From Adineta vaga (taxonomy: Eukaryota; Animalia; Rotifera): 64,000 bases of DNA. Location of the stretch: positions 13,454,001 to 13,518,000 of the forward strand of contig CP075495.1 in assembly GCA_021613535.1 (NCBI GenBank), written 5' to 3'. Each line of letters begins with the position of its first letter. Positions within the stretch are counted from its first letter, which is position 1. Below, one piece after another: positions 1,910 to 8,208 of the stretch. Under the pieces are notes generated by a model. The model had not been told where the DNA came from. It was given only the letters and a program-made list of their open reading frames with translations, and made no database searches. The position numbers and the translations under genes were made by a program.

Positions 1910-2245
1910 ATGACACAACGTTCTGCATCACAACTCTATTTTGATTTAATTCGTCTATTTAAACAATGGCCAATTGATAAATCAAAAACAGGTCGTGATC
2001 TTGGTGAAAAATTACGTGAACAATTTTCGAAATCATTTGCACTTGGTGAAAATTCTCAAGTGAATGTCAACGAATGGAATCATTTTTACGATAATATGAA
2101 ATTACTAATATCCAATGATATTAAAAATCGTTATCCACGAGATCGTAATTGGACAGCATCGGGTTTAAGTCGTGAACAATTACGCTTTATACTTTCGAAT
2201 AAAAGTCTTCAAGCTAATAAAGATTTCATGAAAAAAATGAAATAA
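1910..2245 (+). CDS. UQCC2: Ubiquinol-cytochrome c reductase complex assembly factor 2 (intronless CDS, 111 aa)
   Basis: LF..WPID.SK.GRDLGE.LR, F..GENSQV and RYPR...SGLS.EQ...ILS match the UQCC2/MNF1 family pattern. AATAAA (2241-2246) overlaps the stop codon. Confidence 0.9.
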   Translation: MTQRSASQLYFDLIRLFKQWPIDKSKTGRDLGEKLREQFSKSFALGENSQVNVNEWNHFYDNMKLLISNDIKNRYPRDRNWTASGLSREQLRFILSNKSLQANKDFMKKMK

Positions 2246-2294: not shown

Positions 2295-5200
2295 ATGCGA
2301 TTAACAGAACGGGAATTTGAAAATTTAAAAATTAGTTATGCTGGTCTTCTAGCACAAAAACGTCTTGCTCGTGGTGTACGTTTAAATTATCCTGAAGCAG
2401 TGGCACTTATATCTTCACAATGTCTAGAAATTATTCGTGATGGAAAATCAACGTTAACGGATATTCAACAAAAAGCAAAGAAAATGCTTGGAAAAAATAT
2501 GGTATTAAATGGTGTTCCACAAATGATAAAAGAAATTAATCTTGAAGCAACATTTCCAGATGGTGTGAAAATCGTATGTTTACTTTTGATTATCGATTGT
2601 TTTCATTTTCATATCATCTTTATCAAAGGTAATGATTCGAAATCCAATCTGTACGGATATGGGTGATTTAGAAATAGCTTTCTATGGAAGTTTTCTGCCA
2701 CTTCCATCGACCGATTTATTTCAGGTAAAGAAATTCAATGAATGAGAAAAAAATGATTTCATTTCTTTTGCTTTTTATTTATAGAAAGGAAATGATGCAG
2801 AATCAGGCCCTCATCCAGGTGAAATATTTCTAAAAGATACTCAACCAATTATCCTTAATGCTGATCGAGATAGTATATTTATTACTGTGACAAATGAAAG
2901 TAGTGAACTTATATCAGTTGGAAGTCATTATCATTTTGTTGAGACAAATAGACATTTAGCATTTGATCGAACACTTGCTTATGGAATGCGTCTAGTAAAG
3001 AACATAATTTATAAATCTTTCCAGCAAATTTATTTGTCGTTTTCATAGAATATTCCTGCAGGTGATATTTTAACATTTAATCCTGGCGAACAAAAAGAAG
3101 TTCCACTTATACCTATTGGTGGACAAAGGTAAATACTACAAATGAACTATGTGATTGCAAGGAATTAGTATCTTTCTATTTTATTTAGAATAATTCATGG
3201 TGGTAATGGACTCTTTGATGGCCCTGTGAATGATGAAAATTTGAAAAAAAATCAAAAAAATTTACGTAAAAATAATTTTCTACATGTTGATGAGAAAAAT
3301 AGTGTAGAAAAAGTGAATCGTATTTCAACAAAATATCCTCTTGCTCGAGATTTATATCTTGGTCGTTATGGACCAACTACAGGTGATCGAGTAAGTAGAT
3401 TTCGATTACATAATAATGAAGAAAAAAAAAAGATCTACTACTATTTATTTGATGTATACATAGATTTTACTTGGTGATACAAATTTAGTTGTACAAGTGG
3501 AAGTTGATTTAACAACTTATGGTGAAGAGTGTGCGTTTGGTTTAGGAAAAGTTAGTGAAGATTTGGTACTAGGGAAAAAATAATAAAAAGAGATCCTTTA
3601 GGTTTTAAGGGAAGGTATGGGTCAAGCATCAAATACACGAAATGATGTGGCATTAGATACAGTGATAACCAATGTTGTTATTATTGATGCTATTCTTGGT
3701 ATAATTAAAGCAGACGTTGGAATTAAAGTAAAATTATTGATTGAAATTTTGTGCTTTTCTATTCGATAATCAATTGTTTAGGATGGTGTCATTGCAGGTG
3801 TTGGAAAAGCTGGAAATCCTCAAACAATGTCTGGTGTTACTGCGGTATGTTGATAATATTTGCGATACTTGTACTATATAGATTACTACATTTTTAGGGT
3901 ATGATTATTGGTGTTGGAACTGAAGTAATTCAAGGTGAAAATCTAATCTTAACACCTGGTGGTATTGATCCTTGTGCTTATTTTACTTCTCCTGATGTGA
4001 TAACAGAAGCATTAATGAGTGGTGTAACAACAATGTTTGGTGGTGGCACAGGAATGAATGGTAGTGTAACAATGTCGACACCTGGTCCAAATCATATTAA
4101 ACATATGATTCAAGCAACAGATGATTATCCATTGAATTTTGGTTTCTATGGAAAAGGAAATACATCAAAACCAGAAGGTTTATCCAAAGAACTTGAAGAT
4201 CAAATTGTTGCTGGTGCCATTGGGTTTGTATTTATTTTTTCTAAAACTAAATGAAATGAATTTTTTGTTTAGTTTACGATTAGATGAACGATGGGGTGCA
4301 ACACCTTCAGCTATTGATACTTGTTTACGTGTTGCTGAATTTCATGATATTAGTGTACGTTGTTTTCTTTCTCATTTAAATAACCTTTCCTCACTTTACT
4401 TTTTCTTTCTTTCTTTAGGTTCACGCTGATTTAGATAGTTTACGAGAAGCTTACAGTTCTCCTGATGCTATTGGAATATTTCGTGATCGCGTAGTTTTAA
4501 TTCCATGTACAGAAACGGCTGCAGCTCGTGGTAATTTTTTTGATTTACTTCAACAACCAAATGTGATAATAACATCATGCAATAATAAAGCAGCTGTATA
4601 TCGTCAACCTGGGTAAAAATTTATTTTCAAAAATATTCCAATACATTTCTTAGGTTTCTTTTTTTTTGTAGAGAAAATCAAAAACAATTAGCTGTAGAAG
4701 ATTTTCTTCATGATATTGGAGCAATAAGTATTATTTCATCATCATCACAAGTAATAGCAGAATATTTTGTGAATATCATTAGTAAATTAGTTGTTTGATT
4801 TTTATAGTCAGGTGGTCATGTTGGTCGAATCGTACCACGAACATGGCAAATAGCTGATAAAATGAAAGCTATTACTGGTTATTTATCAGAAGATAAAGTA
4901 TGATAACTGATTGTTTTGAATCGACCGAAATAATCAATTAAATTTGTTCTTCTTTTTTTTCCGCGGATAGGAAAATTCAAATGACAATAATCGTGTTCGA
5001 CGTTATATAGCTAAATATACGATAAATCCAGCATTGACACATGGTTGTGCTCATGTTATTGGTTCTATTGAACAACATAAAATGGCTGATCTTGTACTAT
5101 GGCAACCAATGTTCTTTGGCGTTAAACCAGAAATAATCATTAAAGGTGGTCAAATCTCTTGGTCTCAATCTGGCATTGGTATCTATGCTGATATTCGACC

Positions 5201-5575
5201 AGAACCTATTTGTTTACGAAAAAAATTCGGTGCTGTTGGTCGAAGTCCTAATGCAAATTCTGTCGTATTTGTTTCTAAAGTAATTATTTGATTTGGAATC
5301 TTTATAATGTCAAACAAAACTTTCATTTGTTCATTAAGGCATGTGCAGAATTAAGTGCATCAAATTCATATGGTATATGTAAACATGTCGAAGCCGTCCA
5401 TGATATTCGTATGATTACACGTTTACAAATGATTCGAAATGACAATACACCAAAAGTTGATGTTGATCCAACAAGTGGTCAGATTACCGTTGAAAAAGAC
5501 GGAGAAAAAGTTGTGAATGAACCATTACCACTTGCTGCTCGTTTACCATTAGCTCAACGTTACTTTATGTTTTGA
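2295..5575 (+). CDS. Single-chain (gamma-beta-alpha fused, plant/fungal architecture) urease homologue with a degenerate active site; multi-exon
   Basis: Gamma: [21 protein letters not shown]...EATFPDG. Linker: YGSFLPLPS. Beta: [27 protein letters not shown]. Alpha: [56 protein letters not shown]. Hand-splicing across the short GT-AG introns keeps the frame open to the stop at 5575. Confidence 0.95.
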
Positions 5576-7540: not shown

Positions 7541-8059
7541 TCATACATTAGATGGAATACGATAGAGTGGTTCACGTGGTGGTGGTCTTGTTGGCATTGG
7601 TACTGTATTATCGGTGGTCTTTGGCTCAACAGGTTTCCATTGTTCTTGATAAAGTGCTGCTAAACCATATGCACCTGCGCCAATAATTAATGATATAGCT
7701 GGTACAATTGTTGATATGAGAAAAAGACATGGTAAACTAAGTAAAATATATACAGCAAAACGAATAAAGTAATTTCGAGTCAATGCTCCTAATTTTGTCA
7801 ATAAAATCGATGGATATTGTTGTAAAGGTCGTGCTTTTGATTTTTTTACAATACGTCCACTACGTGGATATTCAATTAGAATAATAAATAAAGCAAGAAT
7901 AAATCCATAAATAGATATTTGCCATAATGAAAAGCGAAAAATCATTGTTAAAATACTGAATATTCCAAGAATATAACCGGTTATTAGCACATGTTCATTT
8001 GCCCACATGGCCCATTCAATTGTACTGGTAGGTAATACTGGTTTTGGCGATGTTGACAT
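7541..8059 (-). CDS. CYBA: Cytochrome b-245 light chain (p22phox), intronless CDS
   Basis: IEWAMWANE, IEYPR, RNYF.R, EQW.P and C-terminal Pro-rich PTRPPPR motifs are diagnostic of p22phox. Confidence 0.92.
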   Translation of the reverse strand: MSTSPKPVLPTSTIEWAMWANEHVLITGYILGIFSILTMIFRFSLWQISIYGFILALFIILIEYPRSGRIVKKSKARPLQQYPSILLTKLGALTRNYFIRFAVYILLSLPCLFLISTIVPAISLIIGAGAYGLAALYQEQWKPVEPKTTDNTVPMPTRPPPREPLYRIPSNV

Positions 8060-8208
8060 GCCTTTGTTGTTGTTGTTTTTTCTTCTTTTTCTATCTAAAA
8101 ATATTTCAATAGATATATTCAGACCAGATCAAAACGATTTACAACATTTAAAATGACTAGTTATCAAAAATAGAATACATTAGGACAGAAAGAAAAGAAA
8201 TTAAAATC

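Follow-up and report, generated by a model that had tools for sequence, protein, structure and literature searches.

A full-length urease-like gene of Adineta vaga lacking all nickel ligands belongs to a lineage-wide pseudo-urease clade of Syndermata

RESULTS

Gene model and transcription of the locus

An Adineta vaga gene encoding a urease-like protein (here, the pseudo-urease) lies on the forward strand at positions 2295 to 5575 of the window, i.e., the whole AT-rich, 64-kb stretch of DNA that was analyzed. Its 15 exons are separated by 14 GT-AG introns of 49 to 73 nt and form a single open reading frame of 819 amino acids (aa) with no internal stops. The encoded protein shows no differences from A. 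vaga UJR28719.1 (P0001). Profiles of the urease gamma, beta, and alpha domains all match this one chain, in that order; the protein begins directly with the gamma domain and has no leader peptide. The features of the locus are as follows.

1910..2245, + strand: UQCC2 (PF20180), the upstream neighbor, ending 49 nt before the pseudo-urease start codon
2290..2291, + strand: AG trans-splice acceptor, 3 nt ahead of the ATG; transcripts with the rotifer spliced leader
2295-2573, 2629-2724, 2785-2994, 3049-3128, 3189-3390, 3464-3550, 3602-3727, and 3782-3844, + strand: pseudo-urease exons 1 to 8
3898-4223, 4273-4354, 4419-4612, 4672-4750, 4808-4897, 4971-5279, and 5339-5575, + strand: pseudo-urease exons 9 to 15
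2295..2573, + strand: exon of the gamma domain (residues 1 to 93; PF00547 from residue 1), with the predicted homotrimer interface

All 14 junctions are spliced at the modeled places in contigs from four of four runs (four studies), so the contig sets must derive from RNA. Together with the identity to UJR28719.1, this bears out the splice model proposed in the first-pass annotation of the sequence. In two of the four runs, a loose contig end at position 2290 corresponds to the 3' terminus of the Rotifera spliced leader (sequence from Table 1 of PMC3795323). The acceptor-ATG context and the synteny of UQCC2 with the pseudo-urease gene are both retained in metagenome loci L015, L023, L027, and L029.

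Through its neighbors (UQCC2, DCC1, and CYBA), the gene was matched to FUN_005712-T1 in Table S2 of PMC12220480. Expression values in the four mean columns are about 18 to 22 (in TPM, judging from the legend of Table 4 of that paper), and the gene is slightly upregulated in spaceflight (log2 fold change of 0.23; FDR of 0.014) in this study, which may overlap the four RNA runs. The table annotates the gene with K01427, urease activity, nickel binding, and a horizontal gene transfer (HGT) flag.

Loss of the nickel ligands and of the mobile flap

Urease active sites are close to invariant. In the A. vaga protein, the six nickel ligands (jack bean H407, H409, K490, H519, H545, and D633) are replaced by C, Y, R, D, C, and S, respectively, and the substrate-binding His (jack bean H492) by D494, as mapped by alignment to jack bean urease (3la4; E value of 3e-231) and to a Canavalia urease. 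The altered sites are located as follows.

3973..3981, + strand: former HxH nickel ligands, now C407 (3973-75) and Y409 (3979-81), from the alignment
4277..4285, + strand: former carbamylated Lys, now R492 (4277-79), and substrate-binding His, now D494 (4283-85)
4428..4430, + strand: D521 in place of the nickel-ligand His (jack bean 519), from the alignment
4506..4508, + strand: C547 in place of the nickel-ligand His (jack bean 545), from the alignment
4578..4612, + strand: in-frame loss of about 27 mobile-flap residues within one exon, from the alignment; low-confidence model loop at residues 573 to 586
4742..4744, + strand: S606 in place of the nickel-ligand Asp (jack bean 633), from the alignment

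The splice model and the two alignments recover every codon substitution that the first-pass annotation had named, and its Klebsiella numbering agrees with PDB variant titles, which served for this check in place of a direct alignment. Its statement that the ligands are nearly invariant in active ureases also holds: in alignment A1, 68 of 68 non-rotifer ureases keep all six ligands and H492, and 14 of 14 rotifer sequences keep none of them. Two features had been overlooked, namely, the distribution of the loss across a whole lineage and a deletion in the mobile flap. The flap zone spans 25 residues in A. vaga versus 52 in 27 of 27 intact ureases, and the flap Cys and His are gone. Jack bean positions D494, R609, and A636 are likewise altered. 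The claim that the rest of the protein is well conserved is therefore true of the scaffold but not of the active-site face, where the flap is 27 residues shorter and these three positions have changed.

The catalytic apparatus of urease, as outlined in PMC6077230, consists of four His residues and one Asp residue on two Ni ions, a carbamylated Lys, and the flap. None of these hallmarks (four His plus Asp, carbamylated Lys, and a helix-turn-helix flap with its Cys and His) is found in the A. vaga protein, and ureolysis is not expected because the apparatus itself has been lost. By established urease chemistry, a di-nickel center should be unable to form on these residues; hence, neither ureolysis nor a need for UreD/F/G would be predicted. 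The TIGR01792 equivalog score is 545, below the cutoff of 680 (Lingula scores 908).

Alternative splicing that restores the ligands was considered and rejected, given introns of 49 to 73 nt and the lack of any intact motif in the window. A search of its six frames with five intact-ligand patterns returned no match; the RNA contigs, for their part, drop rare variants.

Distribution and origin of the gene in Syndermata

Each of the four lineages of Syndermata (bdelloids, Brachionus among the monogononts, Seison, and acanthocephalans) has orthologues without the ligands, which answers the question raised in the first-pass annotation of whether related genomes carry the same losses. The bdelloid sequences come from A. 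vaga, A. ricciae, A. steineri, five Rotaria labels, and Didymodactylos, with 819-aa orthologues across Adineta and Rotaria. Monogononts are represented by Brachionus plicatilis and three monogonont-like proteins. A search of 1.84 billion representatives yielded the acanthocephalan orthologues (Pomphorhynchus laevis, 817 aa; Neoechinorhynchus agilis, 560 aa, a truncated model) and that of Seison nebaliae (954 aa), the barrel of which aligns poorly.

The Syndermata pseudo-ureases form one clade (SH-aLRT of 100; IQ-TREE, LG+G4), which groups with animal ureases (SH-aLRT of 99 to 100), in quick LG+G4 trees whose long branches (2.8 for Seison) may distort placement. Groupings with plants, fungi, bacteria, or stramenopiles/haptophytes were rejected (p-AU of 0.002 to 0.010). 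The grouping with Lingula and mollusks, the expected relatives, was likewise rejected (p-AU of 0.009), about as strongly as the nonanimal ones, so the trees support a place among animals in general.

A horizontal, nonmetazoan origin, as flagged in Table S2 of PMC12220480, runs counter to the support for the animal grouping and to the p-AU values. Nor is the gene absent from related animals, as HGT would have it, since it is present in monogononts, Seison, and acanthocephalans, and the best three hits for FUN_005712-T1 in that table itself are from Lingula and Nematostella. On these sequence comparisons, the published HGT flag is not supported.

Purifying selection on the pseudo-urease

A metagenome scan returned 29 loci. 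Ten of these are AT-rich, intron-bearing orthologues and were used for dN/dS estimates; the 19 non-rotifer loci were left out, and the 17 of them that were checked and span the ligand motifs encode intact ureases. Compared with the window gene, 10 of 10 intron-bearing loci gave dN/dS values of 0.084 to 0.191 (Nei-Gojobori) with no stops, although the 10 values are not independent (L015 nearly duplicates L017, and L027 is close to L029). The full-length locus L015 gave 0.10 over 819 codons, and residues 400 to 620 gave 0.07 to 0.15. Intron positions and neighboring genes are conserved across the orthologous metagenome loci. In L015/L017, a single mapped acceptor has AA, which probably reflects an alignment shift. 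Synonymous changes make up 11 of 13 coding differences in the RNA runs, against a synonymous share of 23% of sites.

The truncated Neoechinorhynchus model and the very long Seison branch (2.8) could raise the suspicion that the gene is decaying or is an annotation artifact. For bdelloids, this reading is refuted by the fully spliced transcripts and by dN/dS values of about 0.1, where a value near 1 would mean a pseudogene; there are no stops, the 819-aa orthologues extend through Adineta and Rotaria, and the Pomphorhynchus and Seison proteins are full length. We regard its probability as negligible. The original proposal of a selected, noncatalytic protein with a urease fold, as opposed to random decay, gains support from the spliced transcripts, the dN/dS range of 0.08 to 0.19, and the orthologues in four lineages. 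As an intact, expressed gene under purifying selection that has lost its catalytic residues, it would qualify as a pseudoenzyme gene on sequence and model.

Predicted fold and trimer, and the search for an active paralogue

An AlphaFold2 model of the A. vaga protein (pLDDT of 85.5; pTM of 0.90) superimposes on jack bean urease with a TM score of 0.92 to 0.93, which agrees with the urease fold that had been claimed for it. With this fold and its gamma, beta, and alpha domains in order, the protein falls within the urease fold family.

Urease trimers are solved structures. Three gamma domains alone were predicted to form a trimer (score of 0.84; best control, 0.00), with at least 92% of contacts agreeing between runs and a partner pLDDT of at least 88. 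For microbes, 21 of 30 solved pairs but no single chain (0 of 23) attained the mark applied; for eukaryotes, the counts were 17 of 29 and 0 of 30. Because urease trimers have already been solved, this pass may reflect structures known to the predictor and speaks for likeness more than for binding.

Hetero-oligomers of catalytic and noncatalytic subunits are a known arrangement. PMC11271267 reportedly describes a ureohydrolase example. With the trimer-interface residues of the gamma domain retained, the pseudo-urease might act as an inactive regulatory subunit that coassembles with an active urease paralogue, one of the roles suggested at the outset. That suggestion is weakened by the searches for such a paralogue. 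No intact urease from a named rotifer or acanthocephalan was present in the best 120 of 298, of 7,995, or of 2,710 matches, even though the best 120 of one search extend to plant and fungal ureases. None of 18 sequences without an organism name that were placed in the tree joins the Syndermata clade, and the window holds no intact-ligand motif. Among about 7,700 rows of the A. vaga table (a figure estimated by proportion, about a quarter of the genes, with gene identifiers running past 28,000), urease has a single row, and UreD and UreF have none. The lack of an intact paralogue and of UreD/UreF in the data examined is suggestive only; with it, the regulatory-subunit explanation appears very unlikely.

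Replacement residues at the former active site

Regional conservation was scored at sites that do not vary among 27 intact ureases. In P0001, 27 of 35 such sites are kept in the gamma domain, 31 of 36 in the beta domain, 49 of 54 in the N-terminal arm of the alpha domain, and 36 of 43 after the barrel, compared with 17 of 38 in barrel strands 4 to 6 and 2 of 17 in the flap zone. The scaffold is likewise retained and the active face lost in Brachionus and Pomphorhynchus.

In A. vaga, C407, D494, D521, and C547 stand at positions of the former site, each on a barrel strand or following one, and might suggest that the site was rebuilt to bind metal through Cys and Asp or to catalyze a new reaction. 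The replacements differ among lineages, however, which makes a family-wide rebuilt metal site unlikely. Four residues are seen at position 407 (C, M, A in Didymodactylos, and G in four of four monogononts), position 494 is S in monogononts, C547 is confined to bdelloids, and no lineage of Syndermata has a His at any ligand position. The re-engineered Cys/Asp/His site envisaged in the first-pass annotation is contradicted by this lack of shared Cys/Asp replacements, and a rebuilt site of any kind seems highly improbable.

The open, flap-less pocket could also bind a metabolite without turnover, which would make the protein a small-molecule sensor or carrier. The remodeled region is highly conserved in bdelloids (89% in barrel strands 4 to 6 and 93% in the flap zone between Adineta and Didymodactylos, versus 72% in the gamma domain), the low dN/dS of residues 400 to 620 fits such a role, and R492, D521, and S/T606 are common to bdelloids and monogononts. 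In acanthocephalans and Seison, however, the former Lys is I, V, or S rather than the R of the other two lineages, the His519 position is C, C, or S, and the length of the flap zone ranges from 11 to 63 residues across the family. Because pocket residues and flap length vary among lineages, there is no family-wide pocket chemistry, and we consider a sensor or carrier unlikely as a general explanation. As the conservation within bdelloids is tight, the remodeled pocket may still form part of a binding site.

Newly conserved surface positions

Eleven positions are fixed in 11 of 11 non-Seison full-length sequences and are rare in intact ureases. None of them is a former ligand; K241, K242, K249, R331, D333, K478, and P731 belong to this set. 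Two elements are located as follows.

3232..3282, + strand: basic helix closing the beta domain (residues 237 to 253; K241, K242, and K249), newly conserved in Syndermata
3638..3646, + strand: R331-N332-D333 loop, variable in intact ureases and fixed in bdelloids, monogononts, and acanthocephalans

The AlphaFold2 model has a helix at residues 237 to 249. The net charge of the basic helix ranges from +3 to +5 across 13 of 13 Syndermata rows; in 27 intact ureases, it lies between -3 and +3 and is mostly 0 or +1. The Seison counterpart of R331-N332-D333 is KID.

The basic helix falls within a stretch (query residues 233 to 321) that matches PDB 2mm8, which we take to be jaburetox. This match would suit a defense or membrane-active protein that has retained the nonenzymatic fungitoxic and lipid-binding activity of plant ureases. 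PMC6077230 offers precedents, namely, ureases that are toxic to fungi and act on membranes when blocked or in the apo form, and a soybean urease that is noncatalytic. We nevertheless find this quite unlikely, as the protein starts with its gamma domain at residue 1 and lacks a leader peptide, and as its slow evolution, its synteny among housekeeping genes, and its retention in endoparasites better fit a housekeeping role. In addition, the searched supplements of a bdelloid fungal-challenge paper contain no row labeled "urease," a label that the paper may not use.

DISCUSSION

A probable noncatalytic scaffold

The protein likely has a different, nonenzymatic job. The reading that we prefer (probability of roughly 0.58) is that catalysis was lost once, in the rotifer/acanthocephalan ancestor, and that the protein now serves, without metal, as a trimeric scaffold in the cytosol, with new surface patches for binding a partner. 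Under this scaffold reading, an animal urease would have been inherited by the syndermatan stem, where the metal center and the flap were presumably lost once. The protein would since have been kept as an oligomeric scaffold, probably in the cytosol, with selection now acting on the oligomer and on the outer surface (i.e., the basic beta-domain helix, the R331-N332-D333 loop, K478, and P731). The newly conserved patches would be the sites at which the putative partner is bound.

A more specific version of the scaffold reading, which we put forward tentatively, holds that the ancestor lost nickel ureolysis together with the maturation genes and that its sole urease became an essential structural or signaling protein that acquired a new partner and may be linked to a shared trait such as the syncytial epidermis.

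Implications

Claims of nonenzymatic urease functions rest mostly on inhibited enzymes or apoenzymes tested in vitro. In the present case, the protein has been maintained by selection without catalysis in free-living, epizoic, and gutless parasitic animals, which implies that some noncatalytic function matters to the organism, and that function can be tested in laboratory rotifers. If the sole urease did become a structural or signaling protein, it would parallel CRMP among ureases and would be the first natural setting in which the genetics of the nonenzymatic role of urease could be studied without confounding catalysis.

Annotations also need correction: databases label the Syndermata proteins "Urease," and the A. 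vaga table assigns K01427, urease activity, nickel binding, and the HGT flag. Inferences of urea splitting, or of a nickel requirement for urease, in these animals should be rechecked. PMC12274423, in its accessible text, treats acanthocephalan "nickel ureases/hydrogenases" as active and does not consider the ligands.

Comparison with known systems

Within the literature searched, which did not extend to subscription papers, we found no description of this pseudo-urease. The available portions of PMC13751858, PMC8789280, and PMC8131560 contain nothing bearing on the gene. Urease terms are absent from the searched supplements of PMC12256650, PMC10809525, PMC5333405, PMC11258130, and PMC7310846; these blanks carry no weight, because even "arginase" is absent from PMC7310846.

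The closest known systems are the single-chain nickel ureases (jack bean 3la4 and intact animal ureases), with which the pseudo-urease shares the gamma-beta-alpha order, about 45 to 52% identity, and TM scores of 0.92 to 0.93. The intact animal ureases compared are those of Lingula, corals, mollusks, chelicerates, tardigrades, echinoderms, and amphioxus, and the Syndermata clade sits among them. Unlike these nickel ureases, the A. vaga protein has no Ni ligand, no carbamylatable Lys, and no H492, and its flap is 27 residues shorter. As judged by sequence and model, it is a urease by descent and fold but not by its defining catalytic features.

A noncatalytic soybean urease (Wiebke-Strohm et al. 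2016, as presented in PMC6077230) is likewise an expressed homologue without critical active-site features, for which a noncatalytic role was proposed. Soybean, however, also has active ubiquitous and embryo-specific ureases, whereas no active copy from Syndermata is among the matches listed; the Syndermata protein, moreover, is conserved across four animal lineages and carries new fixed motifs.

Several ligands are substituted also in UreC-like proteins of Thiorhodovibrio, Serratia marcescens, and Pseudomonas chlororaphis and in a urease-like protein of Radiomyces, but these have independent origins and branch apart from the Syndermata clade. A GTDB scan with P0265 for the gene context of bacterial ligand-less UreC gave 80 loci at 47 to 54% identity, and 79 of the 80 have both ordinary ligand motifs.

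CRMP/UNC-33 proteins are pseudoenzymes derived from dihydropyrimidinase, in the same amidohydrolase superfamily. As in the scaffold reading proposed here, an animal oligomeric enzyme scaffold was retained after the loss of metal ligands and was reused for binding. The parent enzyme differs, with dihydropyrimidinases matching the A. vaga model at 12 to 14% identity, and CRMPs are paralogues of an active enzyme and have known partners. Overall, a real, lineage-wide pseudo-urease of Syndermata is well supported, and noncatalytic ureases as such have precedent.

Genomic context of the pseudo-urease

The pseudo-urease gene lies in a head-to-tail trio with short intergenic gaps, being preceded by UQCC2 and followed by a DCC1-like gene, and this arrangement is also kept at other bdelloid loci.

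1910-2245: UQCC2, first gene of the trio
7541-8128, minus strand: CYBA/p22phox ORF (cytochrome b558 alpha; PF05038, E = 4e-35)

Spliced-leader ends were located at positions 2290 and 5743 in transcript contigs. The RNA-derived contig X14 spans from position 1970 through the urease gene, although contigs that cross gene boundaries are no proof of a single transcript. The three genes look like a trans-spliced operon. CYBA synteny was also found in L015 and L017, two near-duplicate bdelloid metagenome loci carrying a pseudo-urease orthologue.

Urease homologs in other organisms

Among the 50% representatives, several nickel ligands are gone in many proteins the size of UreC (P0261, P0265, P0270, P0272, P0283, P0288, P0297, P0304, and others). 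Three of these, from Thiorhodovibrio frisius, Serratia marcescens, and Pseudomonas chlororaphis, are labeled "urease subunit alpha." They are possibly overlooked bacterial pseudo-ureases. Most of the catalytic barrel is absent from the 702-aa urease-like protein of Radiomyces spectabilis (P0260), which is either a pseudo-urease in a fungus or the product of a faulty gene model.

The A. vaga protein corresponds to FUN_005712-T1 in Table S2 of PMC12220480, where it is annotated as an active urease and flagged for horizontal gene transfer (HGT); its top three matches in that table are all animal. This HGT call is likely false. A single animal clade holds intact single-chain ureases of cnidarians, molluscs, a brachiopod, a priapulid, chelicerates, tardigrades, echinoderms, hemichordates, and amphioxus, whereas the abstract of a standard review lists urease only for plants, fungi, and bacteria.
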